Virus record (IMG/VR): IMGVR_UViG_3300039448_000022
Location: 1 to 54,217 of that record
Direction: 5' to 3' (one strand)
Origin: a virus
Lineage: Duplodnaviria > Caudoviricetes
DNA length: 54,217 nucleotides
The notes beneath the pieces were generated by a model. That model was not told where the DNA came from and did no database searches. It worked only from the letters and a program-made list of their open reading frames with translations. Made by a program: the position numbers and the translations under genes. Each line of letters starts with the position of its first letter. The first letter of the stretch is position 1. This document shows positions 6,023 through 51,366 of this stretch, piece by piece.

Positions 6023-6112
6023 CGCATTTGACTGGTGACTGGCGTGACTGAACGAAACTCAGATACGGGAATTTTAAAGCCCGTTATGCAATTTAGTCAC
6101 CAGCCAAATGCG
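6023..6112 (+). ncRNA. candidate structured RNA (multi-branch)
   Basis: 6023-6040 pairs with 6095-6112 (17/18), enclosing two inner hairpins. Confidence 0.4.
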
Positions 6113-6400: not shown

Positions 6401-6434
6401 TTAAAAATTTAATCGCTGGAGTTCGGACGTAGTA

Positions 6435-8231: not shown

Positions 8232-8241
8232 AGGGATTTAT

Positions 8242-12877: not shown

Positions 12878-12888
12878 GTGGGATATTT

Positions 12889-28885: not shown

Positions 28886-28897
28886 GGAGTAGTAGCA

Positions 28898-31800
28898 GTG
28901 ATTTTAGACAAAGCGGGTGCAACCCCAAACCCAATGATACGCCTGAAGCTGATCAAGGAACTTGGCCAGCTTCGCCGGGACATTATCGTCACACAAGAAA
29001 ATGGCGGCCCTCTGGCCGCTATCAATCGCCTTAAGCTGTTAAAGCAAATGAACCAAATCCGTACCGAGTTAGGTGCGGGTGAGGTTGCTAAGCTAACCGA
29101 TAATATGAACCCCGATGATGCGGATGTTCGTCCGCGTCCTGAAACCGCCGCTCTGTATGAGTTCGATGAGCGTATGACCAAGGGTAAGCGCCAAAAGGCC
29201 AATAACACGGCTATCGACTTGGTGGCTAAAATTAAAGCCGGTGATGTTAGTGCGGACGAATTAACCGACGAACAGAAAAAGACGCTTGCGTCATATACCG
29301 GTAACGGTGGCGGTCTTATTGGTCAGGATGGCAAAAAGGGTTCAGCCTACGAATATTACACGCCGGTACCGGTTGCGGCGGGTATCTGGGATGCCATGGC
29401 TGAGATGGGCTTTAGCGGTGGTAAGGTGCTTGATCCTTCTGCCGGCACGGGTATTTTTGGCTCTACGGCTCCGCGTACCGCTGCGGTTGATGCGGTGGAA
29501 CTAGACGAAACCTCCGGCGCCATTAATCAGCTATTGAACGATGGCCAAGGTTACAGCACGACCGTTGCCCCCTTTGAAAAGGTGGCAGCGGCAACGGATG
29601 ACGAAATTTATGATGCGGTAGTTACCAATGTTCCATTCGGCACCGTTGCCGATCGTGGTGGCAATCAGTTACATGACCCGCGCTATCAGAAAGAAACGCT
29701 TGAGACCTATTTTATTCTGCGATCGCTGGAAAAGTTAAAGCCTGGTGGCTTGGCTGCGTTTATCGTTCCGCCAAGATGCACCAGTGGGCGCGGTGCCAAT
29801 GAAGTTCGTTTACGTGAGCGCGCAAGTTACTTGGGTGAGTTCTTAGGTGCCTACCGCTTGCCAAATAAGGTGTTTGGTGAGGCGGCAGCCGATACCATTA
29901 CCGATGTTATTTTTCTTCGGAAGCACAGCACTGAAGCCCGCCAAAAAATCGAAGAACTGCAGCAAGATAACGCTGAGTCGCTGAGTACGTTTAATGTGCT
30001 CTGGGATGACTATATTGAAGGTCGTTATTTTGAAAGTGAGGAAGGCCGAATTCGCGTACTGGGCGAGTTTAAAGCGAAAGATCCTGATAAGTTCCGCGAC
30101 GTCGACCGCGTAGAGAGTCCTAATTCCGTGCCTGAAATTGCCAAGATGCTGCGCAAATTACCAGGTACGCGCATTGACTGGGTAGGGTTGGACGCGGCTG
30201 AAACCATGCCGGTTGAATATTCTGAAGGCGACACGATCCACCATGGTGGCCAAACGCTTGAGTGGCGTGATGGCAAATGGAGCGCACTGAAGCAGCGCGG
30301 CGAATCTGAAATAGCAGCCAAAGTACTGTCACAAGTGAAGGACGCCTATACGGCTTACCATGCCGGCATTGTTCTTGATAGCGTATTACCTACGGTTAAT
30401 TACCTCCGTCAGGCGTCTAAGGCGCTGGATATTCCTGATTGGCTAACTCAAACCATTGCCTCGCTAAATAAACTGCCTGAGGGTGGTCGTGCTGATGCGT
30501 GGCTACCGTGCGTAACGGCGGCGGCTATGGTCCAGGTGCTGAATGAAAATGGCCGTGATAGCGGCATGAATTTCCGTGAAGAGTTCCGATCGCTCAGTGA
30601 TTCCATGCAGAAGTACGCCGCACGCGCGAAAAAATTGCGCTCTAAAGTGGGCGGTTACGCTAAATCAGCACTCAGTGAAATGGCCGTGCATTACCAGCCT
30701 AAAAAAGGCTTCAGTAATTTATGGCTTGGTGAAGTTGCTCAAACTACGGCGTTTGAGATTTCTTCGGATGCGGGCTTTGAAGGGCTGAAGTACAAAGCAC
30801 AAGGGCATTTTGTCGATATTGAAGGTGCGCGCGCACTCTATAGCGATGGCTTTGACCCTATGTCGTCCGATGACTGGTGTGTTTCTGCCGATGGCAAGCA
30901 AGTAGCCAAGGCTGATGATTATTACACCGGCAATTACGCGCAATTCTTATCTGTTATTGATTTGCAGATTGAGCAAGCAGCGAGTGAAGAATTAAAAAAT
31001 AAATTAATTCGCCAGAAACTGTTAGCCGAAGAACGCGTGGACCGCCTTGACCCCGGCTCGATTACGCACAATCTGTTTTCTCCTTACGTGACCATCGAAG
31101 AGAAAGTGGATTTTCTTCGAAGCTATGTTCACCCGACTGCTTTTGTCGATTATGACGCTAATGGCAAGAAGCAAATCGGTTTCGATATTCCAAACTCTGA
31201 ATTATCGGATCGCACCAAGCTAATTAAGCGCATGTCGCACTATATGAATCATCGCAGTATCACGCTTGGCGGCGTGAAGTTGAGCATAAGCGATGAAACG
31301 GCGATTAAAGAGCTTCAGGGAATGGTTCGTAAGGCGAACGAGCAATTTAGCGGCTGGGCGAAAGCGAACAGAAGCATTAAAGACCGCATGGCATCGCGCC
31401 TTAATGAGCCTGAGCGCTTGTACTTCCGCCAAGTTGAAGACGAAGCACCACTTAGCGTTCCCGGCTTGAATCCTGACTTCCAGCCTCACGGTTACCAAAA
31501 TGGCTTTGCTCGTTCAATGGGGCGTGATTTCTCGGGCATTAACGGCTTTGGTACCGGACTAGGGAAAACATTTTCGGCGCTTCTTTCTGTGCAGTACGTG
31601 CAGAGTATTGGCGTTAAGAATAAAACCCTATTCGTTGTGCCCGGTTCAGTGCTATCTAACTGGCGAAAAGAAACCGCTGCAGCGTATGCAAATATCGATG
31701 ATTGCCTATTCGTCGGATTGCGCGAAGATGCTAACGGTGGTTTTACGGTCGATAGTAAGAATTATGATGAAGACCTTTTCTCTGTCATGGAGAACAAACA

Positions 31801-34800
31801 TCGTAAAATCTTCATGACGATGGAAGCATTTGAGCGCCTGCGCTTGAAAGAACCCACGATAGAAAATTTCGAGAAGTACATGCGGTCTGTGGATGCGTCG
31901 TTTGGCGAATCCGAAGACAAGAAAAAGGATGAGAAGTCTAAGAGCAAAGCAAAGGCTTTAGTCTCTGTGCTCGCTTCGAAAACCGGAGCGGCCCCTTACA
32001 TTGAGGACATGGGCATTGATTCCATCGTCATTGATGAGGCGCATGCTTTTAAAAACTCCGCTGAAACGGTCGAGTTTACCGGCGCTAAGTATTTGTCAGT
32101 GTCGGAGTCTTCAAAACGTGGGATGGATGCACAGGCTAAGTGTTGGTTTATCCGTGGATTAACGCCCCGGGGCGATGGTGTTCTATCGCTATCCGCAACG
32201 CCATTGACCAACTCGCCGTTAGAAATTTACTCGATGCTGTCACTGGCTTCTGGTCACCAAAGAGTAAATGACATGTTGGGCGGCATTCAAGGTGCTGATG
32301 CCTTCATGAACGCCGTATGTGAGATTGAAGACGAAGAAGATTTGACGCTGGACGGTAAGTCTGTGTCGATGTCTGTGTTCAAAGGTCTTAATAATTCAGC
32401 CATGTTGCGCCGTGCGCTACACCAAGTTGCAACCATTAAGGATGCTGATGATGTGGGCGCTCAAATTTTTGTGCCTGAAGCCGACGAAAAGCCAACCCCG
32501 GTATCGTTGACTAACGAATCATTTAAGCGTTTGGAAACGTACAAGGATGCTTATCGTTATGCGATGGACACGCTTCGAGATAAGTCAGACCCGGGTGGTT
32601 CGCCTGAAGCCCTTGAGGCGGTTAAGAATTTGTTTGGTGAAACCGATGAGTTGGTAGGGCACCCGTTCAACTTGATTAATAAGATGAACTACCTGATCGC
32701 GGACCCTGATCTTGATAAGCGTCAAACTCGCTATACGGTGGCACTTGAGGCTGACAGAGAGAAGTTGATCACTGCATGGAATGCTAAAAAGCATAGCGAA
32801 GAACGTGCTTACAAAGGCCCGAACTCAACAGATGCTGATGTGCTTTCTTCCAAGGTTAAGAAAAACAAGGACGGTGACACTGACGGCATGACCTTCAAAA
32901 TGATGGTCAGAGCATGGAGCGAAGGCAACCAGGTGTGCCTAGATACTATGGACGTTGGTTTGCAAGACAAGTTTGAAGCCATCGCAGATAAAGCCGGTAT
33001 TGAGCTTGGCGTAGAGATCCCGCCAAAACTGGCAGCGATGCTAAAGAATTTCCAGACTGAACAGTCACGCCCTCGCGGCAAGGTTGCTGGAAAGCCCGTT
33101 AAGTACACCAAGCAGATTATCTTTTGTGACATTCTCTCATGGCATAACAAGATCAAGCGTTTGCTAATGCAGCGTGCTGGCCTACGTGCTGATCAAATCG
33201 TTATTGTCACCGGCAAAAAGAATAACGCGCCTGAAGATATTCTTGATGTTCAGAATGAGTTCAATGCAGAGGATGGTAAGTACCGCGTTGTTATTGCGAA
33301 CAAAAAGGCTGAGGTTGGCATTAACTTGCAGTTGGGTACTCAGGCTATTCACCATTTGACGATTGGCTGGACGCCGGATTCGCTGAAACAGCGTAATGGT
33401 CGCGGTGTGCGCCAAGGGAACTCAACTGGCAAGGTGAGTATTTATCACTATGACGCCAACGGTACATTCGATGAAGCTAAGCGCACCCTAGTGGCCAGCA
33501 AGGCGGATTGGATTGATAGCCTAATGGATGACAATGGTGGTGACCGCATTGAGATTTCAGGCGGTATGAGTCGTGAGAAAATGGAAGCCTTGATTGATGT
33601 GTTTGGCGACGATGATGGCGTGGCCAAAATGCAGGCGGCCATGGCTGAAAAAGAAGCGGAGGCGCGTATTAAGGCGTCTCGTGATAAGCAGCAAATTGCG
33701 ATTGATACGATTGAAACTCAGAATGGTTTTTTAAGTCGTTACGGCGAAATGCAAGGCTGGATAGGCCGATACCTTGGTGACTACTTGACGCTGCGACAAT
33801 CTATTTCAGATATCCGCAAACGTTTAGAAAAAACTAAATCTGCGAATCGTGCCGCTCAATTAGAAATGCGGATTGCTGAAACCCAAGCTTCTATGGAAGG
33901 TATTAAATCGCGTATTGAAGCCGCTGGTTCGATTCAAGAGGCCAGAGACTACAGTAAACAAGATTGGGATGATGTGTCTGTTGAAAGTGTCATTGCTTCC
34001 TTTACAAGTCGCGCCAAGCGCGGTGAGTCGAGCGGTGACCATTTGGCTAGACAGTTTGCCAACGGCAATATTTCTTACAAATACCTCCGCTTTATCTCTA
34101 ACGATGACTCTGAATTACTGAACGAATGGATGAGTGAAGTGGATATGGCGAAAGAGCTACGCCAGAATGCTGTTGATGCTTATGAAGTTCGGGCTAAGGA
34201 AGATGGCCGGACACCGGCAGGGGCCGCTGTGGCTATCGCTGATGGTCGTGGCACGGTGTATGGCGACATACCATTGTTTGATGGTGTGCTAGTGACCTTG
34301 CCGCAGCGAACCAGCGACGATTTGTCTGTTGTTATCTATAAAGACAATAGGCTCTTTGGGTTGTGGAGTGGTGCAACTGCCATTCGTGGATTCACTCTCG
34401 GTAATATAATGACGAATTCCGATGCGCGCGTGGTTTATCCTGGCACCTCTGAATATGACGATTTGATTGCGGCGATGGCGGCTCATGATGATGAGTGGGC
34501 GACGAAAGGTGAAGTTGATAGCGTATTCACCGACCTTGTGCCTGAAGTCAGTGAGCTGCGCACAACCTCTACGCCTGTGGCTTATACTGATAGCCGATTC
34601 CATGGTGGTGCTCATTACTACTTGCCCGCCCCATACTTCCCGGTACCCATTAATTCAGATTTTAAAGGCACCTCTGACTTCTTAGATTCAATTATTGAGA
34701 AGCAAAGTGAAGTTATTATCCGTTGGGAGCGAACTAAATTCATTGTGCCTCAGGATCTCACTGTAAAAGAAAGCGAGTCAGTGCAGCCGCTGTCTGTATT

Positions 34801-35317
34801 TATTGCTTACGCGCAAGCAAATAATCTTAAGTTGAAAAACGTGGACTTTGGGCCGTTTAGATCAACAGTGGATAGTTATATTTCTTCGAAGATTGATAAC
34901 GCCAATTTAAAAGAAATTCTCGCTGAAGCGGATCGCACGAAAGAGGCCATCATTGAAGCCGCTAAGCGGTTTATTCGTGAGACTGCTGACTGGTATGACG
35001 CTGAAGGCAACGAGTTTGACGCGCTGACTTATCAGGAATCACTTATTGATCGTGAAATTTCTTCGTTAAGTGATGGTGCGCCAAGCGAAGGTGAGCCAAG
35101 TGAGGTTACGGAAGATCTTAATGCTCTTGTATCTGTGACCGGTGAGACTCGTCGCTGGAAAGATGAGATTAAAGAGTACGCGCGTAAATACGAAGCCAGT
35201 GGCTATGCTAAATGGAATCGTCGCGAAGTTGCGTGGAAAATGAAGATCGGAGCGTTTAAGCTGTTAGAAAAGGAATTACCTCAGGCAGCCGCCCAACTTG
35301 AATACAAACTCGTTTAA
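28898..35317 (+). CDS. darB: DarB-like N6-methyltransferase / SNF2 helicase antirestriction protein
   Basis: EYYTP, VLDPSAGTG and TNVPF MTase motifs; GTGLGKT, IDEAH, LSATP and QRNGRGVRQG helicase motifs. Confidence 0.9.
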   Translation: MILDKAGATPNPMIRLKLIKELGQLRRDIIVTQENGGPLAAINRLKLLKQMNQIRTELGAGEVAKLTDNMNPDDADVRPRPETAALYEFDERMTKGKRQKANNTAIDLVAKIKAGDVSADELTDEQKKTLASYTGNGGGLIGQDGKKGSAYEYYTPVPVAAGIWDAMAEMGFSGGKVLDPSAGTGIFGSTAPRTAAVDAVELDETSGAINQLLNDGQGYSTTVAPFEKVAAATDDEIYDAVVTNVPFGTVADRGGNQLHDPRYQKETLETYFILRSLEKLKPGGLAAFIVPPRCTSGRGANEVRLRERASYLGEFLGAYRLPNKVFGEAAADTITDVIFLRKHSTEARQKIEELQQDNAESLSTFNVLWDDYIEGRYFESEEGRIRVLGEFKAKDPDKFRDVDRVESPNSVPEIAKMLRKLPGTRIDWVGLDAAETMPVEYSEGDTIHHGGQTLEWRDGKWSALKQRGESEIAAKVLSQVKDAYTAYHAGIVLDSVLPTVNYLRQASKALDIPDWLTQTIASLNKLPEGGRADAWLPCVTAAAMVQVLNENGRDSGMNFREEFRSLSDSMQKYAARAKKLRSKVGGYAKSALSEMAVHYQPKKGFSNLWLGEVAQTTAFEISSDAGFEGLKYKAQGHFVDIEGARALYSDGFDPMSSDDWCVSADGKQVAKADDYYTGNYAQFLSVIDLQIEQAASEELKNKLIRQKLLAEERVDRLDPGSITHNLFSPYVTIEEKVDFLRSYVHPTAFVDYDANGKKQIGFDIPNSELSDRTKLIKRMSHYMNHRSITLGGVKLSISDETAIKELQGMVRKANEQFSGWAKANRSIKDRMASRLNEPERLYFRQVEDEAPLSVPGLNPDFQPHGYQNGFARSMGRDFSGINGFGTGLGKTFSALLSVQYVQSIGVKNKTLFVVPGSVLSNWRKETAAAYANIDDCLFVGLREDANGGFTVDSKNYDEDLFSVMENKHRKIFMTMEAFERLRLKEPTIENFEKYMRSVDASFGESEDKKKDEKSKSKAKALVSVLASKTGAAPYIEDMGIDSIVIDEAHAFKNSAETVEFTGAKYLSVSESSKRGMDAQAKCWFIRGLTPRGDGVLSLSATPLTNSPLEIYSMLSLASGHQRVNDMLGGIQGADAFMNAVCEIEDEEDLTLDGKSVSMSVFKGLNNSAMLRRALHQVATIKDADDVGAQIFVPEADEKPTPVSLTNESFKRLETYKDAYRYAMDTLRDKSDPGGSPEALEAVKNLFGETDELVGHPFNLINKMNYLIADPDLDKRQTRYTVALEADREKLITAWNAKKHSEERAYKGPNSTDADVLSSKVKKNKDGDTDGMTFKMMVRAWSEGNQVCLDTMDVGLQDKFEAIADKAGIELGVEIPPKLAAMLKNFQTEQSRPRGKVAGKPVKYTKQIIFCDILSWHNKIKRLLMQRAGLRADQIVIVTGKKNNAPEDILDVQNEFNAEDGKYRVVIANKKAEVGINLQLGTQAIHHLTIGWTPDSLKQRNGRGVRQGNSTGKVSIYHYDANGTFDEAKRTLVASKADWIDSLMDDNGGDRIEISGGMSREKMEALIDVFGDDDGVAKMQAAMAEKEAEARIKASRDKQQIAIDTIETQNGFLSRYGEMQGWIGRYLGDYLTLRQSISDIRKRLEKTKSANRAAQLEMRIAETQASMEGIKSRIEAAGSIQEARDYSKQDWDDVSVESVIASFTSRAKRGESSGDHLARQFANGNISYKYLRFISNDDSELLNEWMSEVDMAKELRQNAVDAYEVRAKEDGRTPAGAAVAIADGRGTVYGDIPLFDGVLVTLPQRTSDDLSVVIYKDNRLFGLWSGATAIRGFTLGNIMTNSDARVVYPGTSEYDDLIAAMAAHDDEWATKGEVDSVFTDLVPEVSELRTTSTPVAYTDSRFHGGAHYYLPAPYFPVPINSDFKGTSDFLDSIIEKQSEVIIRWERTKFIVPQDLTVKESESVQPLSVFIAYAQANNLKLKNVDFGPFRSTVDSYISSKIDNANLKEILAEADRTKEAIIEAAKRFIRETADWYDAEGNEFDALTYQESLIDREISSLSDGAPSEGEPSEVTEDLNALVSVTGETRRWKDEIKEYARKYEASGYAKWNRREVAWKMKIGAFKLLEKELPQAAAQLEYKLV

Positions 35318-35748
35318 TGGAAATTACTATGTTTACTGAATTTCGATACGACAGTGATGGGATCAAGACGCTTGTAGCTGAAAATGCTGCAACAGTCCGT
35401 AGTGAACGTGGACTGTCAGACTACACAGGTTTTGCTATTAGCGTATTTCGTAAGCGCTTAAAGCAAAACGGTCCTATTCGCTATCTGGATTACGGCCCAT
35501 ATTGGTGGGCTGTTAAAGATGTGCTCAATCGAGCAGGTGAAGACCTTGGCAGTGATGATGATGCTGAATTACGTGAAGCCTATCGCGGCGAAACGGACGC
35601 AGAGACATTAGCTATGGCAGATCTATATCGTGAGCAATACTTGAAGACTCAGTTCCTGGGTTCTCGGCAAGTGGTGCTGACTGATACGGGTGAGCTATGG
35701 ACCATCATGGATGATGACATGGAAGAGAAAGCGATGGCGTCCGCTTAG
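35317..35748 (+). CDS. ulx: Ulx-like protein
   Basis: RL...RYLDYGPYWWAVK motif; directly after darB as in P1. Confidence 0.8.
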   Translation: MEITMFTEFRYDSDGIKTLVAENAATVRSERGLSDYTGFAISVFRKRLKQNGPIRYLDYGPYWWAVKDVLNRAGEDLGSDDDAELREAYRGETDAETLAMADLYREQYLKTQFLGSRQVVLTDTGELWTIMDDDMEEKAMASA

Positions 35749-35793
35749 CACCTTTGAACCAACTACTAATTTATTAAAAATTAGTAGTTAATT

Positions 35794-35822
35794 AAAAAAA
35801 CCGGCCTAGAGTCGGTTTTTTT
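35794..35822. terminator. bidirectional intrinsic terminator
   Basis: A7-CCGGC-ctaga-GTCGG-T7. Confidence 0.8.
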
Positions 35823-35872
35823 ACACCTATATTTCTTGTTTTTGTTGAAAGTGCGCAATATAGGTGTATATT
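35823..35872 (+). promoter_or_regulatory. moron promoter with 11-bp inverted repeat
   Basis: ACACCTATATT (35823-33) / AATATAGGTGT (35857-67) flanking TTGAAA; TATATT at 35867-72. Confidence 0.5.
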
Positions 35873-35940
35873 TAAGAAATGAAGTGCAGCAATGTTTGCC
35901 GCTGAAAATTGAAATCATTAGCAGAGCTTGGAGAAAAAGA

Positions 35941-36210
35941 ATGACGGATAGAATCGCCATTAATGGTCAAGGTGACTTTCTGAATCTTCTTAATAGTGAT
36001 TTAGATAAGCTCGACATGGAGCAAGATGAAATGTTGACTCATATAATCAAAGCCTATTTTTCAAAATTTAGAGAGCGGAGCACTACAGGCAATGGAAATA
36101 TAGATGTTGCCGATCTTCTTGAGGTTCGCAATTCTTTATTTGCTTCTTTGAATGATATTACAGCTTTGATCAATGAAGATTACGAGCAAAGAGCGAAAAC
36201 CAAATATTAA
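35941..36210 (+). CDS. hypothetical accessory protein
   Basis: MTDRIAING with GGAG RBS. Confidence 0.65.
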   Translation: MTDRIAINGQGDFLNLLNSDLDKLDMEQDEMLTHIIKAYFSKFRERSTTGNGNIDVADLLEVRNSLFASLNDITALINEDYEQRAKTKY

Positions 36211-36223
36211 AAAGGATGTTGAA

Positions 36224-36733
36224 ATGCAGATTGCAACGATACACACAGACGATCATAAGGCGGTTGAGTTTTATAAATCTGCCCTGATTCACAATTGTGC
36301 TGAAAAAATGATATTCCTTATTGAGACAAAGGACATCCCGGAAGACGAAAGCTTTATCTTCTCTGATGGTGCCAAGCTGCAAGTTATCTATGGAGGCGGT
36401 GAGGATGTGCGCGGTGAAGAGATTGAATCATTCTTCTTCACCCATGAGTTGGCCGGTGCCTCAACGCTTGAGATTTATAAGAAAACAGAAGGTAAGTCGC
36501 AAATTGCAAGTTTTCTTAGAGATCTTGCCGAAAGGATTGAGTTTGGTGTGGTTGTAAGCGGAAATATTGATCAATATTTTGAGCTTGAAGATAAATGCGT
36601 TTCTATGGGAGAAGCAATACAAGAATACAGCGGCAAAAGAACGGTAAAGATAGATTTAACGTATCGAACACCGCTAGATGATATGCCTTTAATTTTACCA
36701 AAGACAAATGAAATAGGATGGACCCTAACATGA
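36224..36733 (+). CDS. hypothetical accessory protein
   Basis: MQIATIH with AAGGA RBS. Confidence 0.65.
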   Translation: MQIATIHTDDHKAVEFYKSALIHNCAEKMIFLIETKDIPEDESFIFSDGAKLQVIYGGGEDVRGEEIESFFFTHELAGASTLEIYKKTEGKSQIASFLRDLAERIEFGVVVSGNIDQYFELEDKCVSMGEAIQEYSGKRTVKIDLTYRTPLDDMPLILPKTNEIGWTLT

Positions 36734-37047
36734 AAACTAATTCAATTGCTTGCGCCTCTGACGTGCTCAATCTGAATGATAAAATCGCCAACCGTGCTGC
36801 TGCTGACGCATGGCTAAATAGCCTAGTTGATAGCGGTTTATATTTTCACTTGGAAAGTGAACCAAGTGAAATCGTTAATGATTCATGTGAGCGATTTTTC
36901 ACCGATGAAGAAGCTGAGCTGATATCGCAACGAGTAGATGAGCTATATGAACTGGACTGGTCTGATAGCGATGGTTGTCCTATTGGTTACATGCTTGATC
37001 GCATTCAGACTGTGATAACAACAGAGCAGAGAAATTTAAATACTTAA
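36730..37047 (+). CDS. hypothetical acidic protein
   Basis: ATGA-coupled ORF. Confidence 0.65.
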   Translation: MKTNSIACASDVLNLNDKIANRAAADAWLNSLVDSGLYFHLESEPSEIVNDSCERFFTDEEAELISQRVDELYELDWSDSDGCPIGYMLDRIQTVITTEQRNLNT

Positions 37048-37059
37048 AACGGGTGAGTA

Positions 37060-37257
37060 ATGACGGCAAGCGAGCAGTGTAAAGAGGCGGGTTTAAAAAG
37101 TCTCACCGAGTTATCTACAATCACAGGGAAGTCGGTTAGGACGCTACAGAATTGGCATAGGGATGATTCTAACTTTTTCAGCATAGTACTGTGTGGTGCC
37201 GTCATGATTAAAAAGGGTTTACTGGTGCCCCCTGCGGGCTTGGGTGGCAATCAATGA
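37060..37257 (+). CDS. small HTH DNA-binding protein
   Basis: GLKSLTELSTITGKSVRTLQNWH. Confidence 0.75.
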   Translation: MTASEQCKEAGLKSLTELSTITGKSVRTLQNWHRDDSNFFSIVLCGAVMIKKGLLVPPAGLGGNQ

Positions 37258-37302
37258 AAGTCTGCCTAGTTGTTGAAGCGTTGTAATTGATTGGAGTTAA
37301 GT

Positions 37303-37470
37303 ATGGAAGAAGAATGGGGCGAAGAAGGAACGTGTGATATTTGCGGAGAAGAAGATGTTCAAGTGTGCTTGACAAATAACCCGTTTCTTCGCGATGTATA
37401 TCCAGATAGTGATAATCCTGATGAATATTGGTGTCGCGAATGTTACGACGTAAGAGCAGGTGATATATGA
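37303..37470 (+). CDS. small zinc-finger protein (55 aa, not in ORF track)
   Basis: GGAG RBS; MEEEWGEEGTCDICG...WCRECY; ATGA overlap with the next gene. Confidence 0.7.
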   Translation: MEEEWGEEGTCDICGEEDVQVCLTNNPFLRDVYPDSDNPDEYWCRECYDVRAGDI

Positions 37471-37778
37471 AAGGCTTTGATTGTGACATGCCCAGTATTT
37501 TAAACGTCCCAACGTATGCAACCTTACTTGATTGTATTGGTGATGCTTTTGAAATGGATGCTGATATAGCAAAAATTGCGGTTGTTAAAATTAATGCTTT
37601 AGGCCCATTTGAACGTGGTGACTTTGAGGTTTGTGATGTGATCGCGATGATTGGCCATCTTTTTATTCATGACCTTATCCAGCGAGACCTTAAGGAAAGG
37701 GTTGCTGCCTATGGTGGCTCTGTATTTTATGACCACTACTTTTCTCGAAAAACTGAAGTGCAGCCAGAGCTATTTTAG
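37467..37778 (+). CDS. hypothetical protein
   Basis: Coupled 103 aa ORF. Confidence 0.6.
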   Translation: MKGFDCDMPSILNVPTYATLLDCIGDAFEMDADIAKIAVVKINALGPFERGDFEVCDVIAMIGHLFIHDLIQRDLKERVAAYGGSVFYDHYFSRKTEVQPELF

Positions 37779-37815
37779 TTGGTGTCGTAGGAAAGGCTTT
37801 AAAAGCTCAAAGAGA

Positions 37816-37908
37816 TTATTCGCATGGTGATTGCTCCGGACAGGGCCAGCAGAAATGCACAACCCACGGTGGTACCCCGTGGCCGATGAGTAGTCGCCAG
37901 CCGAATGA
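37816..37908 (+). ncRNA. candidate structured RNA with possible pseudoknot
   Basis: Long closing stem, GAAA-tetraloop hairpin, CCACGG/CCGTGG hairpin. Confidence 0.4.
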
Positions 37909-37920
37909 TTTAGCGAAGGA

Positions 37921-38106
37921 GTGAACAGCGTGGAAGATGAAAAAATCATTGCTCTTCTCGATACCAAAATAGGGGAGGAGCCGGACTTTGTAACGCCTAT
38001 TCCTATTAGTGTTTTCAATAATGCAGCGAGTATTGAACAGCGAGTGAATAGAGCGCGCGACCGAGTTGACCAGCAACGATCAATAGCGAGAAAGTCTGAT
38101 GAGTGA
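37921..38106 (+). CDS. hypothetical protein
   Basis: 61 aa ORF with AAGGAG nearby; start uncertain. Confidence 0.5.
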   Translation: MNSVEDEKIIALLDTKIGEEPDFVTPIPISVFNNAASIEQRVNRARDRVDQQRSIARKSDE

Positions 38107-38293
38107 AGTGAATGAAGTTGAACGTATTGTTATGCATGAATGTTTAGAGGCTGTAGCAAGCGAGTGTGAGACAGAGACAGAGTATGACGGCCAAATGCTA
38201 ACGCACTGTTTCTATTGTGGATCATGGCTCGATGAAAATGATCATGAAGACGATTGTTTGCATATTAAAGCTAAGAAAATATTAAACGCATAA
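38099..38293 (+). CDS. small Cys/His protein, cassette 1 (alternative start 38132 inside GTTATGC)
   Basis: CFYCG...HEDDC; stop TAA lies inside GCATAAC. Confidence 0.7.
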   Translation: MSEVNEVERIVMHECLEAVASECETETEYDGQMLTHCFYCGSWLDENDHEDDCLHIKAKKILNA

Positions 38294-38318
38294 CCCACGG
38301 CTTAGCCGTTTGTTATAC
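38288..38318. repeat. mini attC-like site B
   Basis: GCATAAC-cc-ACGGC-tta-GCCGT-tt-GTTATAC. Confidence 0.65.
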
Positions 38319-38342
38319 GGCTGCTGATACGGAGTAAATATA

Positions 38343-38519
38343 GTGACAGAGAAAAGAATTGTAAAAGGTAGCGAGTTGGAGCTTGGAATGACCGTTCAAC
38401 GACTATTGAATGGTTCACCTATTCATCATCCAATGATTATTTTTTCTGACGGCCCATATTACAAAAATCCTCTGTACATAGAGGATGATTTTGAGGTGCT
38501 GATTGATAACGCCGTATAA
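38343..38519 (+). CDS. hypothetical protein, cassette 2 (58 aa, not in ORF track)
   Basis: GGAG RBS, GTG start MTEKRIVKGSELELG..., stop TAA inside GTATAAC. Confidence 0.7.
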   Translation: MTEKRIVKGSELELGMTVQRLLNGSPIHHPMIIFSDGPYYKNPLYIEDDFEVLIDNAV

Positions 38520-38550
38520 CCCTCGATTGTATTCACGAACGGAGATTCAC

Positions 38551-38904
38551 ATGGAAAGAACTTATACGGTTTACAAAGGCGAACAGAACGGGAAGCTTGT
38601 TTATATCGGGACTACGATTCAAGAGCCAAGCGCGCGGTTTAGATGGCACAAGGCAAACGGTAAGCCTTTGCAATTTACAGTGCTTTCTCAATTCGACAAT
38701 GCTGATGCTATGCTTGATGAGGAATACCGACTGATTAAACAGCACAGACCAAAGATGAATAAAATAACGCACCGGAAGCAAAACCTAAATGTTGCGCTAA
38801 CGCAAGAAGAACTGGACGCTCGAAAAGGCGACAAGCAGTGGTGTCAATGCTGTCTGAAGCGCAGAGTGAGCAAAGGCTATTCTCTATGTATGCGGTGCGG
38901 ATGA
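38551..38904 (+). CDS. GIY-YIG nuclease with C-terminal zinc finger, cassette 3
   Basis: YTVY...LVYIGTT...RFRWH...EYRLIK...N; CQCC...CMRC. Confidence 0.75.
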   Translation: MERTYTVYKGEQNGKLVYIGTTIQEPSARFRWHKANGKPLQFTVLSQFDNADAMLDEEYRLIKQHRPKMNKITHRKQNLNVALTQEELDARKGDKQWCQCCLKRRVSKGYSLCMRCG

Positions 38905-38908
38905 GCGA

Positions 38909-38959
38909 ATATAACCCGGCGCTTACGTGCCGAAGGTCAATTACAGCGTCTTGTTATTT
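38909..38959. repeat. attC-like site C
   Basis: ATATAAC-37 nt imperfect palindrome containing GTGCCGAAGGTCA-GTTATTT. Confidence 0.65.
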
Positions 38960-38973
38960 ACCATAGGTGATTT

Positions 38974-39201
38974 ATGACAACTGTTCTGGTTACTGATGGA
39001 CGCAGCATAGATGATATTTCAGAGCTGCTTTCAGAATTAGACGATATAGAGGTTCGAGAGGCGAGCCGACACGACTTGAAGTTGATTTGCCGCGAGTTCG
39101 GACATGAGTACTTCAGGGTTCCAACTCTTCGTATAGAACCTTTGAAAAATAACGAAACATGGCGCGGCAGTGGAAAGCGCCGAAAGCCTATGTGTAAATA
39201 A
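38974..39201 (+). CDS. hypothetical protein, cassette 4
   Basis: AGGTGA RBS; stop TAA inside AAATAAC. Confidence 0.7.
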   Translation: MTTVLVTDGRSIDDISELLSELDDIEVREASRHDLKLICREFGHEYFRVPTLRIEPLKNNETWRGSGKRRKPMCK

Positions 39202-39247
39202 CATGCCTGAACGTGTGCCGAAGGTCACACGATTTGGGGTGTTATAA
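39196..39247. repeat. attC-like site D
   Basis: AAATAAC-38 nt palindrome (CGTGTG-CC-gaa-GG-t-CACACG)-GTTATAA. Confidence 0.7.
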
Positions 39248-39298
39248 TCAGCCCCGATAGCTACCTTCCTATCCCTGCCTCCATAAGTCCGCCATACC

Positions 39299-39338
39299 GG
39301 AAAAACCCCGCTAATCAATGCCGCCGCACCTCTACTAT
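39299..39338 (+). promoter_or_regulatory. putative late promoter 4
   Basis: GGAAA-N29-TACTAT. Confidence 0.7.
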
Positions 39339-39367
39339 GGTGTCTAAATACTGCGGCATGTTTTGAC

Positions 39368-40912
39368 ATGAAGAAACAGAGAAGCAGCTTTTGGGGTTTT
39401 GGAAAGCCATCCCAAAAAGCTACAGAAACATTCAAGGCTGCCGAAAGTGGCGGCATGAAGGATATGAATCAGAGTCAAGCTATGACTCTGGGCGCTATGC
39501 CTTCGTCTATAACCTCACTTCTTAGATCAGGTCGTCGCGAGGCGCGAGACCGTATTACGATCTATGACAAGTGGTCAGAAATGGAGAGCAACCCATTTGT
39601 GAGCACGGCACTTTGGCTGCAAACTACAGCAGCCCTTGGTGGTCATGAGAGCACAGGCCAGCTTGTTTTTATTGAGCAGAATGGTACTGAACAAGATAAG
39701 CAAAAGCTGAAAATAGTCGATGACATCGTTGATTCACTTTCCGATATGCTTAACTCCGTAGCGTTCCCTATGTGCTACAACGGCGCAGCCTTCGGTGATG
39801 CGTTTGCTCGTATCTACTCTGAAGACAAAGTAGGTGTAACGGACATCTACACGGAAGAGCTTGTGCGTGCCAGCCTGGTTCAACCCTTCGAGCAAGGGTC
39901 TAGGACTGTCGGTTATGCCTTGACGACGGGTAACGATCAATTTGAGCGATTAAACATTGCTCAAATGGCCCGTATGAAGATGCCGCGCGTGACGTGGGTG
40001 CCTCAGATGGGTGTCTTTGAAAAATCCCTTCTCGACAATTTAACGAATGACGATGTGAGCGATCATCAATTAACACCGTCTTCGGTTGGTGGTTCGTTTT
40101 TGTATGCAGCGGAAGAATCTTACGATCACCTAAATTCGTCCATGGCTGGTATTGTTGGTCAGCGTTGGCTTGATAGTATTGATGAGCAGATTATCACTAT
40201 CAATATGTCGGACATGACTGACGATCAACAAAAAAAGTACAGTAAGTCTGCGCTAGCAATGTTTCAGCGTTCGAAGCAGATTGCAGAAGACGCTGTTAAA
40301 AACGGAAGACCATTTCTGGAGCGCATCAAACACATCATCCCTGTCTGGTCGGAAAAGCAAGTCCAGAACGTTTCTGCCATGAACGGCGGTCAATCTGGTC
40401 GTAATGGAACGATAAGTATTGAAGATGTAATGCTTCACGCTAGATCTTTAGCTGGTGCTCTAGGTACCGACTTGTCGATGATTGGTTTTGCCGATCAATT
40501 ATCCGGCGGCCTTGGTGATGGTGGTTTTTTTAGAATTAGCACTCAAAGTGCTGAACGTTCACGTATCGCACGAATTGCGCTTACTAATTGTTTTAATCAA
40601 ATCATTGATATTCACACCATGAAAAAGTTCGGAGTGGTGTTTTCACCTTCTGAACGCCCTTGGAAAATTACTTTTTATAGCACTATTTCTGCTTTGGCTG
40701 CTGAGCAAGCCCGCACCCAATTGGATTCAGCCAACGGTAGCTTAGTAATTCTACAGGCAATCCAGCAATTAAAAGACAACGGCGCAGATGAAAATACCGC
40801 CGTTGCATTTATGCGTGATGAACTGCAAATAGATGAAGACAAAGCTAAAATCTACGCTGCGATGGTTAAAAAGCCAGAGGGTGAGGGTAACGAAGTAGGA
40901 GGCGGCTTTTAA
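39368..40912 (+). CDS. portal protein (P1 Prt-like)
   Basis: 514 aa; FGDAFARIY, IEDVMLHARSLAGALGTDLSMIGFADQLSGGLGDGGFFR motifs. Confidence 0.85.
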   Translation: MKKQRSSFWGFGKPSQKATETFKAAESGGMKDMNQSQAMTLGAMPSSITSLLRSGRREARDRITIYDKWSEMESNPFVSTALWLQTTAALGGHESTGQLVFIEQNGTEQDKQKLKIVDDIVDSLSDMLNSVAFPMCYNGAAFGDAFARIYSEDKVGVTDIYTEELVRASLVQPFEQGSRTVGYALTTGNDQFERLNIAQMARMKMPRVTWVPQMGVFEKSLLDNLTNDDVSDHQLTPSSVGGSFLYAAEESYDHLNSSMAGIVGQRWLDSIDEQIITINMSDMTDDQQKKYSKSALAMFQRSKQIAEDAVKNGRPFLERIKHIIPVWSEKQVQNVSAMNGGQSGRNGTISIEDVMLHARSLAGALGTDLSMIGFADQLSGGLGDGGFFRISTQSAERSRIARIALTNCFNQIIDIHTMKKFGVVFSPSERPWKITFYSTISALAAEQARTQLDSANGSLVILQAIQQLKDNGADENTAVAFMRDELQIDEDKAKIYAAMVKKPEGEGNEVGGGF

Positions 40913-41682
40913 TGTCTCTCTTCAATAACGTTTCAGCGGCGACAATGCAGGCTATTAAAGAGCAGGCACCCAGATTACTGTCTGATGCTGGCGAACGTTA
41001 CCTCCCACCTCACCTAAGAGCGCCACTTGAAGAAATTGTGTCACTGTATGAGAGCGGCTTTGCACTTGATGAGGTGAAGCAAGCCGGTGTGAGAGCGTTA
41101 GTGAATAATGGGCAGTCTCGTGCCGTTAGAGAAATCTACCTAAATTCTAAAAACCCATTGCTGGGTGGTGTCACTCCATTGGCCGCCATCGATTATATGT
41201 CCTCATCGCCACGCCGCGCTCAGGCGAATTTATTTTTAGTGGCCGTGTCGCCAATTGATTCTAAAGCCGCGAACCAATCCGAAGCATTCAATATGATGGT
41301 GCGATCCTTGGATTACTCACCGTTTACCATAAGTGGTGATTACCATCGCGTAGGTGGTGCTCTGGTTGACGGTATTACGGGCAACGAAGCGGTTGAATTA
41401 AACATGACCACCATGGATGACGAATCGGGCACATTAAAGCGCTGGTTTGCACAAATGCTAGCACGAGTGTCAGCGTCTGATGGCACAGTTGGGGTGCCTG
41501 CGAGTTATGGAATAAAGATTGAAGTAACTCATGCTTTTGGCGGTGGGGATATTCCTGAGGCCGCGTATAAAGATAAAGGGCTATTTCGAGCTGGCAACCT
41601 GTCTATGTCGCTATCTCGTGGGGAAAATGCGCTTGAAGATCTTCAGATGACGTTCAACCAACTTGATACATTCTGGGGCTGA
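40912..41682 (+). CDS. P1 Tub-like tail tube / baseplate protein
   Basis: DY..FTI....VGG...DDESGTLKRWF....DGTVGVPASY. Confidence 0.7.
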   Translation: MSLFNNVSAATMQAIKEQAPRLLSDAGERYLPPHLRAPLEEIVSLYESGFALDEVKQAGVRALVNNGQSRAVREIYLNSKNPLLGGVTPLAAIDYMSSSPRRAQANLFLVAVSPIDSKAANQSEAFNMMVRSLDYSPFTISGDYHRVGGALVDGITGNEAVELNMTTMDDESGTLKRWFAQMLARVSASDGTVGVPASYGIKIEVTHAFGGGDIPEAAYKDKGLFRAGNLSMSLSRGENALEDLQMTFNQLDTFWG

Positions 41683-49808: not shown

Positions 49809-51056
49809 ATGCTTAATAATATCCCGCAAGGCGTTATTAGAAATCTGCGTAACGTTATTACCAAGCACCCAAACACTTTTGAATGTCAGGTAATTCGAAA
49901 GGAAGTCGTTCGCTCTGGCGCGGGCGAGCTTGGTGGAATGAGAGTTCTAAGCTCCGAAGATGAGCATGATACTCAATACTCCTCCGTGGGCGTTGGTTAC
50001 GCATTGCCGTCAGATCAGTTTCAGGGTGGTGGTTTGTACGATAGCGGCGATGCTGTTTATGGCGATGAACAAGAATATAGTTTTTTAATTGAGCCTGATG
50101 CGGCATCTGGACAAGAGGGGCATTGGTCCCCTCAGAAACGCGACATTATGTACATCGTAATTAGCGATACAGTAAAAGTGGCTTATGAATTAGTTGGCCA
50201 TCGTACACCGCTTAACATGGCACCATTTCCCGTGGTTTGGATTGCTAATAGAGTCAGTGAAATGGACGTGCTAGGCACAGATCCTGTTGATGATTTACCT
50301 AGCGCAAGCTTTGGGGGGTTATCTCAATTTGAAACTGAAATAACACCTGCGCTACCCGGTGAATTTAGTCATGATTTAGGTTTTACTGTAACTCCGCTAT
50401 CGTTTGTTTTGGATATTCCAGATGAGGGCGGAACAACATATTCAAAAGCTGCCGGGGTTGATGTGGTAGGAATTGAAGAACCTGTTTATTTTGAAGTTAA
50501 GAATACCCCCATTCCTGGCAACATCTTAACTGCTGGAACAGATGTGGCATCGATCATTCTATTGTTCGGGATGACACCAGCCGATTTTGCTTCTCTAATG
50601 ATTGCTCCTTCACCTGTTGATAACCCACAGTCTCTGGGGTTGTTCTTGCTTGCAGCGAATGCTTATTCAGATATTTATACTCAAGCTGTAGTAATTGATC
50701 CGGCAACAAATTCAAATAGCGGCTGTAATTTTTATGAAGGTATCAATGGCCGAGTTGGAATTAGTTACAACCCTGAGACACTTGAGCTATCGATGTCTTA
50801 TTTCCCAGAGGTGGTTAATGCATTTTCAGATGGTAAAGAGATAGTTGGACCGTTTACGGTAACCCTGCCTTTTGAAGCAGGAAGAATTCCAATATCCGGA
50901 CTTGTGCTTGGAGAAATATTAGACAATTTCTCTATTGAGTTGGTTGTGAATCAAAATGAATTTGAAGGAGCTATTCCTGCTGGGTTCGCCGCGCTTGGTG
51001 ATACCACCTACGGAACAGACACCTATTCATTACCTGATGGACTTGGATTGGAATAG
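49809..51056 (+). CDS. structural protein; possible head-tail N-domain plus variable C-terminal extension
   Basis: 415 aa ORF in the late cluster; family assignment weak. Confidence 0.55.
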   Translation: MLNNIPQGVIRNLRNVITKHPNTFECQVIRKEVVRSGAGELGGMRVLSSEDEHDTQYSSVGVGYALPSDQFQGGGLYDSGDAVYGDEQEYSFLIEPDAASGQEGHWSPQKRDIMYIVISDTVKVAYELVGHRTPLNMAPFPVVWIANRVSEMDVLGTDPVDDLPSASFGGLSQFETEITPALPGEFSHDLGFTVTPLSFVLDIPDEGGTTYSKAAGVDVVGIEEPVYFEVKNTPIPGNILTAGTDVASIILLFGMTPADFASLMIAPSPVDNPQSLGLFLLAANAYSDIYTQAVVIDPATNSNSGCNFYEGINGRVGISYNPETLELSMSYFPEVVNAFSDGKEIVGPFTVTLPFEAGRIPISGLVLGEILDNFSIELVVNQNEFEGAIPAGFAALGDTTYGTDTYSLPDGLGLE

Positions 51057-51084
51057 AAATACATTTTAGTTTTAGGAATAGATT

Positions 51085-51366
51085 ATGGGCACGGTCGTAG
51101 ATCTTGATAACAGCACTACTGTCGCGGTAGTTGGTTCGGATAATATTACTCTTGCTGAAGAGTACACTCATCACAAAATCACAGTACGCGGCCCATCCGG
51201 TATTCATATTGCGTTTAAGCCCTTTGGTGCGGATGACTATGATGACAGCGCAGGCGAAATTGAAGAAAACGGATCAGAGCTTTTCTTTGTTGGCCCGTCA
51301 ATAGAACTTGAAGTGACCACCGTCGTACCAGGTGCGAACGTCACCGTCATGATTTTAAGCTGGTGA
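51085..51366 (+). CDS. small beta-rich structural protein, paralogue A
   Basis: YTHHKITVRG...LSW shared with 52884..53180. Confidence 0.75.
   Translation: MGTVVDLDNSTTVAVVGSDNITLAEEYTHHKITVRGPSGIHIAFKPFGADDYDDSAGEIEENGSELFFVGPSIELEVTTVVPGANVTVMILSW

Follow-up and report, generated by a model that had tools for sequence, protein, structure and literature searches.

Small gene units bounded by short, inverted attC-like sites in a marine phage

Main

Integrons are treated as bacterial devices. In the canonical cassette, the gene lies upstream of its own attC on the top strand, which leads to expression from Pc, and in the circular form the start of the cassette pairs with the complementary R'' box of its site. 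To our knowledge, attC sites under ~57 bp are not expected to be functional.

The closest described systems are of two kinds. A CALIN is a cluster of two or more attC sites that share a strand and lack a neighbouring intI (Cury et al. 2016, PMC4889954), and attC length is given as 57–141 bp (PMC5371416). Phage genomes have been reported to bear attC clusters without an integrase (CALIN); IntI1 recombined five of the six phage attC sites tested, and action of a bacterial integrase in trans was proposed (Qi et al. 2023, PMC9892861). The other kind is the PeSL, a regulatory cassette of T4-type phages (PMC4122927) that mediates shuffling and yields mini-circles (Arbiol et al. 2010, PMC2839356). 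The comparisons below hold for the accessible portions of these sources.

Phage-borne attC clusters are already published; what is new at the locus analysed here is short, inverted sites with metagenomic turnover. Like the published clusters (PMC9892861), the locus has several attC-type sites on one strand, no intI nearby and small cargo genes. Unlike them, its sites measure 15–48 nt, as compared with the 57–141 bp quoted for attC, are placed 5' of the gene with which they move, inverted relative to the canonical arrangement, and form one family common to unrelated phages of one host group; turnover is seen here directly in metagenomes, but there are no recombination assay data. With PeSLs (PMC2839356), the array has in common short repeated stem-loops between small non-essential genes in a hypervariable phage region, shuffling at these elements and, by inference for the array, small circular by-products. 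A PeSL, however, is a sigma-70 promoter plus a terminator that recombines by homology, whereas the array sites gave no promoter consensus in a crude scan and show joints at a 5-nt core, unit-specific complementary ends and attC likeness.

Results

The array and its phage

The window, meaning the whole 54,217-nt stretch of DNA that was analysed, is a distant P1-like marine phage and covers an estimated 63% of the genome, with ~37% unseen. The array lies directly upstream of the portal gene. By tblastn, the portal is 53% identical to that of Xanthomonas phage Rb1 and 28% to P1 Prt, and its best relative in a large protein search is 66% identical; no close relatives by portal protein were found in the viral contigs or genome contigs. 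Xanthomonas Rb1, Acinetobacter ABMM1 and P1 were too distant to serve as comparators for the interval. The features of the locus are as follows.

38099–38293, + strand: ORF1, 64 aa, no family; right limit is site A, left 'site' doubtful
38118–38133, + strand: possible site 0, AAC, 5 nt, GTTAT; collapsed, inside or at the start of ORF1, weak
38290–38316, + strand: site A, ATAAC-CC-ACGGC-TTA-GCCGT-TT-GTTAT, a 27-nt miniature attC-like hairpin
38343–38519, + strand: ORF2, 58 aa, no family
38516–38530, + strand: site B, ATAACCCTCGATTGTAT, 15 nt, collapsed or degenerate, with GTAT replacing GTTAT
38551–38904, + strand: ORF3, 117 aa, GIY-YIG nuclease
38911–38957, + strand: site C, 47-nt attC-like site with core GTGCCGAAGGTCA
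38911–39197, + strand: ORF4 unit, 287 nt, comprising ATAAC, body C, GTTAT, leader, ORF4 and 3' arm
38974–39201, + strand: ORF4, in the ORF4 unit between sites C and D
39198–39245, + strand: site D, 48-nt hairpin with a bulged T
39368–40912, + strand: portal gene (PHROG 1497, 2.7e-150), the backbone anchor on the array's right side

Sites A, C and D share the form ATAAC-hairpin-GTTAT and, together with the collapsed site B, separate ORF1, ORF2, ORF3 and ORF4. Inverted AAC...GTT outer boxes are present at A, C and D; site B has GTAT. Core to core the four sites measure 27, 15, 47 and 48 nt, or 31–52 nt with full boxes included. As single-stranded DNA, site A folds at −7.9 kcal/mol (z −2.6), with a CC/TT internal loop and no bulge, and site D at −11.8 kcal/mol (z −3.2). 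The fold of site B, which forms the ORF2/ORF3 spacer, is not significant (z −0.1). Site C scores z −0.5, and its minimum-energy fold leaves TAAC unpaired with GTTA. An Rfam search returned a single noise match and nothing relevant, and a crude consensus scan of the + strand found no promoter-like site at A–D.

The initial annotation had read the locus as four consecutive small genes with mutually complementary ends, and all eight motifs on which it relied are present: GTTATGC (38129) and GCATAAC (38288), GTTATACGGC (38312) and GCCGTATAAC (38511), ATTGTATTCAC (38526) and GCGAATATAAC (38905), and GTTATTTACCATAGG (38953) and CCTATGTGTAAATAAC (39187). Its statement that three of the four stop codons are the TAA of the core is correct for ORF1 (where the TAA lies inside ATAAC at 38290–38294), ORF2 and ORF4, the stop of ORF3 being TGA. 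The core that it saw in two sites, GTGCCGAAGGTCA, occurs at 38927 and 39215, the only two exact copies in the window. This recurrence is uninformative alone because, in a search allowing two mismatches, 25 of 100 shuffles gave at least two matches. The reported absence of an integrase from the window was upheld (no PF00589 and no TIGR02249 match), as was the remark that the sites are at or below the usual minimum attC size (15–48 nt core to core versus 57–141 bp in the accessible part of PMC5371416).

The first of the four cassettes is doubtful. Its left end, GTTATGC at 38129, falls within ORF1 if that gene starts at 38099 (a start at which ORF1 overlaps the preceding ORF by 8 nt), and there is no preceding hairpin, none being found at possible site 0. 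Since GTTATGC occurs five times and GCATAAC three times in the window, the 7-mer is within chance. The sole hint of a collapsed site at this end is the breakpoint of one metagenomic relative (X3, below), whose match stops at 38116 and whose own continuation again has AAC...GTTAG.

For ORF1, the only Pfam match was DUF3222, at 16.2 bits and under the cut-off of 25. ORF3 matches PF01541 (24.7 bits, cut-off 22.6) and the PHROG 16880 endonuclease (5.6e-10), and has 70.6% nucleotide identity to a Pseudomonas phage HU1 gene without adjoining ATAAC...GTTAT sites; this GIY-YIG gene was the sole blastn match when a named phage was sought as comparator for the array. An alignment search of viral contigs found one homologue of ORF4 and nothing else. 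It lies in G2, a second array-bearing viral contig, and its protein is 54% identical. Here the leader TTGTTATTTACCATAGGTGA is identical over 20/20 nt and the 3' end is identical too, and the flanking site bodies differ on both sides.

Gene ends are complementary across units

The flank that follows GTTAT is complementary to the flank that precedes the next ATAAC. We catalogued 28 sites from the window, G1 (a further viral contig), G2 and locus L010 of an Oceanospirillaceae MAG, giving 23 adjacent pairs in four sequences. Beyond the 5-nt core, the complementary run of adjacent pairs is exactly 4 in 14 of the 23, with a mean of 3.43. For the 28 own-site pairs the run averages 0.86, and for the 733 non-adjacent pairs 0.66, with 20 of the latter at ≥4; none of 100,000 permutations reached the sum observed for the 23 adjacent pairs. 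This establishes complementarity of adjacent flanks as a rule of the array. In the window the runs beyond the core are 5, 4 and 4 nt for ORF2, ORF3 and ORF4, in keeping with the earlier observation that pairing is across the gene and not across the site, and 10 nt of complementarity link the ORF2 ends GTTATACGGC and GCCGTATAAC. Unrelated ORFs are flanked by the same end pairs.

Relatives differ precisely at the sites

Near-identical relatives of the phage in four seawater metagenomes (X3–X6) differ upstream of site D. All four begin matching the window at 39196–39199 (right breakpoints 39198 in X3, 39199 in X4, 39199 in X5 and 39196 in X6), where the ATAAC of D begins; in X4, 38074–39198 is replaced by 321 other letters. 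Window stretches that the relatives' contigs did not cover were excluded from the evidence. Site D is a conserved docking site that remains with the portal side. A comparison of this interval across related phages had been suggested as a check on the cassette reading, and it placed the breakpoints at the AAC box in four of four metagenome runs. Of the two crossover boxes put forward, AA|C of the left core fits and G|TT on the gene strand does not.

The ORF4 unit, the one whose movement is observed, is also present in a second context, where the two ATAAC cores bound it. Record 15 of X5 carries 38911–39202 with one difference and between other flanks, followed by ATAAC and a body identical to that at G1 13073. 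A search for the same cassettes in other phages had also been suggested as a check. In X4, record 10 (317 nt, depth 47) closes on itself, with 39197 joined to 38911. Instead of a free circle, this contig may represent tandem copies or an assembly-graph cycle passing through the repeated body, and a true circular form remains an inference.

Blocks shared among array-bearing sequences tell the same story. Homology begins at the left core in four of four blocks (three at 90.8–92.8% identity, one at 80.4%), and two of them (G1/L107 and G1/G1, L107 being another array locus) also finish at the next left core. Some mosaic joints fall elsewhere: a J-type body and leader recur with a different gene, and body K has a hybrid appearance. 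As far as assembled sequences can show it, related phages have swapped small genes exactly at the sites. By the same comparisons, the site body travels with the downstream gene, with the crossover at ATAA|C.

The site family in other viruses and in bacteria

The same site family is arrayed in further viral contigs as well as in genomes of Neptuniibacter, Amphritea and Oceanospirillaceae, and the same architecture occurs in at least 11 further viral loci. Bodies near-identical to that of site C lie at G1 6657–6703 and in L010. Arrays span unrelated phage types, including the P1-like myovirus of the window and phages with a giant internal virion protein (G1 and G2). We found no recombinase common to the array-bearing phages, no IntI in the three phage records and no integrase in G1 or G2 other than the lambda type. 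The window and G2 share stretches that are 94–100% identical; on these stretches, and on the arrays in Oceanospirillaceae genomes, rests our inference that a marine Oceanospirillaceae is the likely host of the window phage, for which there is no direct demonstration. None of the 37 CRISPR spacers of Neptuniibacter pectenicola matched the sequences compared over its full length; one matches just 19–22 nt of a cassette leader.

Motif scans on their own were of little use. The 13-mer pattern matched genome contigs 28 times, and 27 of these matches, in coding DNA, are probably fortuitous; among 80 loci listed for ATAACCCGGCG...TTGTTAT, 56 are one unrelated conserved sequence and others resemble coding DNA. 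Metagenome scans found the D-type pattern nowhere; the four matches to the ORF4 leader bore no other resemblance to the window.

Five genomes carry arrays or a matching spacer. A TIGR02249 integrase scores 434 and 396 bits (cut-off 265) in two of them and is damaged in two more, being split in N. pectenicola and degraded in the Oceanospirillaceae MAG. The attC sites of these hosts read TAACGCC...CTTGTTA(T/G), with a 10-bp inner helix, one bulge and compensatory changes in 10 of 15 pairs. Taken as a family, the phage sites resemble the attC sites of Neptuniibacter, Amphritea and Oceanospirillaceae in their TAAC and (C/T)TTGTTA(T/G) ends followed by a short unpaired spacer, in a 10-bp helix whose single bulged base lies on the same arm, in placing the TAA stop within the core and in the complementary flanks of neighbouring sites. 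Host attC sites are 48–84 nt long and lie 3' of the gene, beside intI, whereas the phage sites are shorter, begin with ATAACCC more often than with the host TAACGCC, and sit on the gene's sense strand with opposite polarity. Relative to the reading of the site, host cassette genes are antisense in three of three host arrays checked and phage genes are sense, which bears out the inverted orientation first noted in the window.

We built a covariance model, R1, from 19 host attC sites. Its score is partly circular because the pattern by which these sites were picked shares the phage end motif. In 160 kb of the three phage records, R1 gave nine matches, all of them array sites in one orientation and including site C; in 236 kb it gave 29, all of the TAAC...GTTA form. 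Among the matches listed at E ≤0.002, 10 of 11 lie on the presumed array sense strand, and the 11th (L107 1625–1682) is absent from our site list. Site C scores 18.5 bits (E 0.0064, 0.0022 and 0.0094) and fits the host helix with four non-standard pairs. Site A, at 10.6 bits (E 0.77), is at noise level, site D is matched on the minus strand only (9.5 bits, E 1.7) and site B gave no match. The initial annotation had proposed an attC model search on both strands; of the window sites, R1 matches C (E 0.002–0.009) but not A or D. Across the 29 matches, 81.6% of cells are paired versus 31–44% with slid partners, and 87 cells carry both-side changes versus 12–31. The register of inner helix and bulge is kept across these phage sites, in an alignment that was itself fitted to R1.

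Discussion

We consider it probable that the locus is an integrase-less, CALIN-like cluster of integron-type cassettes, with short inverted relatives of host attC as its sites and host IntI as the most likely enzyme. The integron-type reading first suggested for the array is supported by the complementary ends, the likeness to host attC and the breakpoints at the AAC box. By formal definitions the fit is incomplete. Only site C, one of the four in the window, passes the host attC model, and at least two attC on one strand are reached only if A and D are counted; the intI and attI that would stand beside the array of a complete integron are not met in the window, which holds ~63% of the genome, and the canonical order of gene upstream of attC is not met in the phage units.

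Four parts would make up each unit: a miniature attC-like site, a short leader that carries a ribosome-binding site, a single small gene and a 3' arm whose sequence complements that of the leader. Cutting and joining would take place at ATAA|C in the left core, the equivalent on the opposite strand of G|TT in the canonical attC R' box; with the cut at this point, the site body would move with the downstream gene. In a circular form, the 3' arm and leader would flank the site and lengthen its outer stem to ~9 bp or more, and the gene ends may be complementary because arm and leader extend the stem in this way. The sites themselves may be shortened relatives of attC from Oceanospirillaceae (Neptuniibacter, Amphritea) chromosomal integrons, inverted relative to the gene, and a host integron integrase might act in trans on the folded sense strand of the phage. 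Both the catalysis by IntI and the single-stranded folding are inferred.

It is unlikely, in our assessment, that the sites are instead PeSL-type regulatory cassettes, shuffled by homologous or short-homology recombination (for example through an Erf-like protein) and resembling attC only incidentally. Site A was classed as terminator-like in the consensus scan, its stem being followed by TTGTTAT, and many bodies are G+C-rich hairpins followed by T-rich TTGTTATTT; the few reused body types provide 30–50 nt of homology, the window encodes an Erf-like annealing protein (2242–3171), and T4-type PeSLs are described, in the accessible part of the source, as shuffling and forming mini-circles (PMC2839356). 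On the other side, block boundaries fall at the 5-nt core and not within bodies in four of four cases, and the body after the ORF4 unit in X5 is unlike D, so that this joint shares only ATAAC. Neither are unit-specific complementary ends predicted, nor an inner helix and bulge in the host attC register, and the consensus scan listed no promoter-like site at the four sites on the + strand. A terminator role could coexist with the cassette explanation.

ATAAC might also be the target of a site-specific recombinase other than IntI, either a phage enzyme encoded outside the window or host XerCD. We judge this improbable, given that the arrays occur in unrelated phage types without a common recombinase, that G2 (estimated 99% complete) has no PF00589 match and that ends, spacer, helix and bulge are common to host attC. 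In its favour are the lack of IntI in the three phage records and its split or degraded state in N. pectenicola and the Oceanospirillaceae MAG, the sites being shorter than known attC and inverted relative to genes, the two lambda-type integrase modules inside the G1 array and the ~37% of the phage genome that is unseen.

A purely RNA-level role, in which the two ends of each cistron, its 5' leader and its 3' end, would base-pair with each other to control translation or stability without DNA recombination at the sites, has very little chance of being correct. The left arm of ORF4 does overlap the Shine-Dalgarno sequence and the right arm holds the last codons, and both arms are identical in the G2 homologue even though the proteins are just 54% identical; yet the ATAAC breakpoints in four of four relatives, the ORF4 unit in a second context and the host attC likeness would all go unexplained, and the constancy of the run, exactly 4 in 14 of the 23 pairs, resembles a fixed footprint and not selection for stability. 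A chance arrangement of short palindromes, to which the recurrence of the cassette 1 7-mer in the window and a 13-mer test that was not significant as run lend some support, can be practically discounted overall and is already refuted for cassettes 2–4 by the permutations, the further viral loci and the coincidence of breakpoints with the core. N4-type hairpin promoters, RNase III sites, IS200/IS605-type ends, invertible segments and MITE-like body insertion were dropped because none predicts unit-specific complementary ends together with core joints.

The preferred reading, an integron-type cassette cluster, extends to a broader one that we offer only tentatively, as possible but not yet favoured: that marine Oceanospirillaceae phages keep their own pool of 'reverse' cassettes, with an attC-like site of 27–60 nt placed 5' of the gene, and exchange them at fixed docking sites, between unrelated phage lineages, via the host integrase. 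Reversed attC-like sites, much shorter than usual and related to the attC of the likely hosts, do occur in unrelated marine phages, and environmental data show cassettes being replaced at the crossover point. The sites are short enough to be synthesized and tried directly in attC × attI tests. If the host integrase drives the shuffling, phages borrow integron machinery for their own accessory genes; this would open a route by which genes pass from one phage lineage to another, and perhaps also between the cassette pools of phage and host, and the smallest functional attC site would be shorter than hitherto supposed. On the broader reading, the phage pool would be the phage-side counterpart of the host chromosomal integron, possibly stocked with counter-defence genes.

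Array of small genes upstream of the portal

The window record comprises 54,217 bases, with an estimated completeness of 63%. Its portal protein (39368-40912; PHROG 1497, 2.7e-150) shares 53% identity with Xanthomonas phage Rb1 and 28% with P1 Prt by tblastn, and an Erf-like annealing protein is also encoded; the window is a distant P1-like phage. Of two giant genes upstream of the portal (24761-35317), one encodes a 1374-aa product with a domain of virion or lytic type and the other a DarB-like methyltransferase/helicase of 2139 aa, a pair reminiscent of the antirestriction region of P1. Small + strand ORFs follow one another in the interval separating the DarB-like gene from the portal, four of them with ATAAC...GTTAT sites between or after them:

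38099-38293, + strand: ORF1, overlapping the upstream ORF by 8 nt
38290-38316: site A, ATAAC-CC-ACGGC-TTA-GCCGT-TT-GTTAT
38343-38519, + strand: ORF2, no family
38516-38530: site B, collapsed, ATAACCCTCGATTGTAT
38551-38904, + strand: ORF3, GIY-YIG (Pfam 24.7 bits, cut-off 22.6)
38911-38957: site C, containing GTGCCGAAGGTCA
38974-39201, + strand: ORF4, no family
39198-39245: site D, containing GTGCCGAAGGTCA

The initial annotation had described this interval as integron-like gene cassettes. All of its quoted motifs are present where it placed them, and three genes (ORF1, ORF2 and ORF4) do, as it claimed, take their stop codon from the TAA of ATAAC. The left end that it assigned to the first cassette remains unproven, lying inside ORF1 with no preceding hairpin and consisting of a 7-mer with several occurrences in the window. 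Searching the window for recombinases recovered neither IntI nor any other tyrosine recombinase, in agreement with its remark that no integrase is present. As single-stranded DNA, sites A and D fold better than shuffled sequences (z -2.6 and -3.2), site C folds no better (z -0.5, ends unpaired in the minimum-energy fold) and site B does not fold. Site A also appears as terminator-like in a scan of the window; the hairpins may act as terminators too, which is compatible with an integron-type reading.

The same site family in other viruses

A search pattern derived from sites C and D retrieved two more viral contigs, G1 (55 kb, estimated completeness 100%) and G2 (51 kb, 99%), as well as an Oceanospirillaceae MAG contig (L010). 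The two viral contigs are syntenic relatives of each other (~71% nucleotide identity), both encode a 3338-aa internal virion protein, and neither is related to the window phage. In both, small genes are separated by arrays of ATAAC...GTTAT sites; the backbone position of the arrays is shared, their content unlike: about 14 units in G1 (6088-13125) and three in G2 (1052-1722). A second pattern matched >115 stretches in viral contigs, and true arrays occur at at least 11 loci among the matches listed (80 loci). Rejected as arrays were 56 of the 80 listed loci, which represent one unrelated conserved sequence of 47 nt (within L046-L125, mostly from one sample) that starts ATAACCCGGCGGGGGTT and ends TTTGTTAT; it turns up in numerous contigs of roughly 25-47 kb with an identical end motif and no surrounding array.

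Window positions 1-668 match G2 50262-51208 on the opposite strand in stretches of 94-100% nucleotide identity, the phages being otherwise unrelated; at the level of sequence, this suggests recent exchange in a common host pool.

Matched ends and the unit of movement

For 28 catalogued sites (window, G1, G2 and L010), the 8 nt that follow GTTAT were checked against the 8 nt that precede ATAAC. Complementarity beyond the core averaged 3.43 across a gene (adjacent sites, n=23), 0.86 within one site (n=28) and 0.66 for all other pairs (n=733), and none of 100,000 permutations reached the observed sum of across-gene runs, which bears out the proposal that ends pair better across a gene than across a site. 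Of the 23 adjacent pairs, 14 had a run of exactly 4; the window runs were 5, 4 and 4. In four pairs (runs 0, 1, 1, 2) complementarity was weak or failed: two are the integrase modules, a third is a 900-nt interval, and there is one further pair. When all loci were scanned less strictly, 67 candidate units emerged (both strands counted), 38 with a run of 4. An ORF occupies most of the interval in 39 rows of the unit table, 23 of which have the TAA of ATAAC as stop; these rows include repeats (L069 is G1 again, L056 is L061 again) and some reverse-strand readings. Since identical end pairs surround unrelated ORFs, the ends are matched types not bound to one gene.

Homology begins at the left core, (A)TAAC, in all four blocks compared: G1 6907-7166 with L107 (90.8% as aligned, flanks diverging immediately beyond the cores), the duplicated alpA-plus-integrase module of G1 (91.7%), G1 11850-12056 with L010 (92.8%) and L053 with L099 (80.4%). 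For two blocks, G1/L107 and G1/G1, homology also stops at the next left core. These boundaries define the unit as site body, GTTAT, leader, gene, 3' arm and ATAA, and the body belongs with its downstream gene. Exceptions are a J-type body and leader common to G1 and L010 with a different gene, and body K, which has a hybrid look. ORF4 has a homologue in G2 (54% identity) with an identical leader (20/20 nt) and 3' end, and unlike bodies on either side.

The G1 module copies (7161-8612 and 10012-11463) each combine an alpA-like gene with a lambda-type integrase (PF09003 + PF00589) and sit between array sites, as if themselves cassettes.

Cassette replacement in seawater relatives

Contigs from four seawater metagenome runs (X3-X6, three studies) were compared with the window over 35000-41500. 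They contain 22-41% of sampled words of 37600-39700, and their flanks share 95-99% identity with the window. Right-hand matching begins at 39198 (X3), 39199 (X4 and X5) and 39196 (X6), where the ATAAC of site D begins (39198), and every contig has unlike sequence before it; the right-hand breakpoints fall at this core (39196-39199) in all four runs, in the comparison of relatives that the initial annotation had asked for. One X4 contig spans the gap, with 321 other letters in place of 38074-39198. An X5 contig carries 38911-39202 with one difference, set in other flanks; the body that follows its ATAAC has the same sequence as the one at G1 13073. Because body D always remains with the portal, the crossover is placed in the left core, equivalent to the canonical G|TT of R' after allowing for inverted polarity.

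A 317-nt X4 contig joins 39197 back to 38911 through five ambiguous letters (the ATAAC), at a depth of 47 versus about 5 for the backbone. Its ends overlap by 30 nt, as a circular path would give in a graph with k=31. Three origins are possible: a circle, a tandem copy, or a cycle in the graph that runs through a repeated body.

A second hypervariable spot lies at 35876-36730, where X3-X6 show four differing skips or replacements (from 35876; 35883 and 36283; 36283; 36507) with a common end at 36730, the ATG directly after CCTAAC; no attC-like hairpins were seen within it. A 25-nt palindrome (CTACTAATTT...AAATTAGTAG) and then a strong hairpin, terminator-like and bearing A and T tracts, occupy 35755-35830, 3' of the ORF ending at 35748.

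Relation to host integrons

Querying with a 19-nt leader retrieved arrays in Neptuniibacter and Amphritea MAGs. The leader is also part of a CRISPR spacer in Neptuniibacter pectenicola LFT 1.8 (NZ_LUTS01000001.1, 1-2300; 38 repeats of 28 nt), which starts with TTGTTATTTGGCGCGGGAG; as it matches the sequences compared over only 19-22 nt, it counts as a hint only. Two of five of these genomes have matches (434 and 396 bits) above the 265-bit cut-off of TIGR02249, the integron integrase family; a third has the gene in split form and a fourth in degraded form. In Neptuniibacter pectenicola, it occupies two overlapping frames (G003:C24 1810-2762, L167/L170; family positions 1-212 and 203-314), either a frameshift or a pseudogene. 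Sites separating host cassettes beside intI read TAACGCC...CTTGTTA(T/G), and the alignment of 19 sites folds into an outer stem, followed by a short internal loop and then a helix of 10 bp carrying a single bulge, with compensatory changes in 10 of 15 pairs. In all three host arrays checked, the cassette genes run antisense to the site reading and have their TAA stop in the core.

A covariance model of these 19 sites (R1), searched against the window, G1 and G2 (160 kb, both strands, E up to 10), gave nine matches, all at array sites and on the gene-sense strand (best 30.5 bits, E 8e-7). In the window, the model picked out site C (18.5 bits, E 0.006; E 0.002 on the window with filters off); with filters off, site A stayed amid noise matches (10.6 bits, E 0.77) and site D matched on the minus strand only (E 1.7). 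When the search was extended to 18 sources (236 kb, E up to 1), each of the 29 matches had the TAAC...GTTA form, with 81.6% of cells paired versus 31-44% when partners are slid 1-3 columns, and both-sided changes in 87 cells versus 12-31. The host sites were picked by a pattern sharing the end motif, and the alignment of the 29 matches was fitted to the model. We conclude that the phage site family is related to host attC sites, shorter, and inverted relative to genes, a polarity with which the reported bulges on the 'wrong' arm are consistent. Structural features of attC sites and their 57-141 bp range are taken from Loot et al. 2017 (PMC5371416).

Proposed mechanism and precedent

The site family, its matched ends, the joints at the core, the movement of one unit between contexts and the existence of host integrons with related sites are established by these comparisons. 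By inference, a host IntI would fold the sense strand of the phage, which is the canonical bottom strand, and recombine it at ATAA|C, excised circles would have the outer stem of the site extended by the two arms of the unit, and site D would serve as the docking site. Our literature search turned up no account of arrays in Neptuniibacter phages, of attC-like sites as short as these or of reversed-cassette arrays in phages. PeSLs are the nearest phage analogue that works by homology (PMC2839356). Qi et al. 2023 (PMC9892861) reports 17 attC clusters without integrase in phage genomes and recombination of five of six phage attC sites by IntI1; CALIN is defined in Cury et al. 2016 (PMC4889954). 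Overall, the array is real and its reading as a cassette array is supported; phage-borne, integrase-less attC clusters are already known, and the present array differs from them as a variant.
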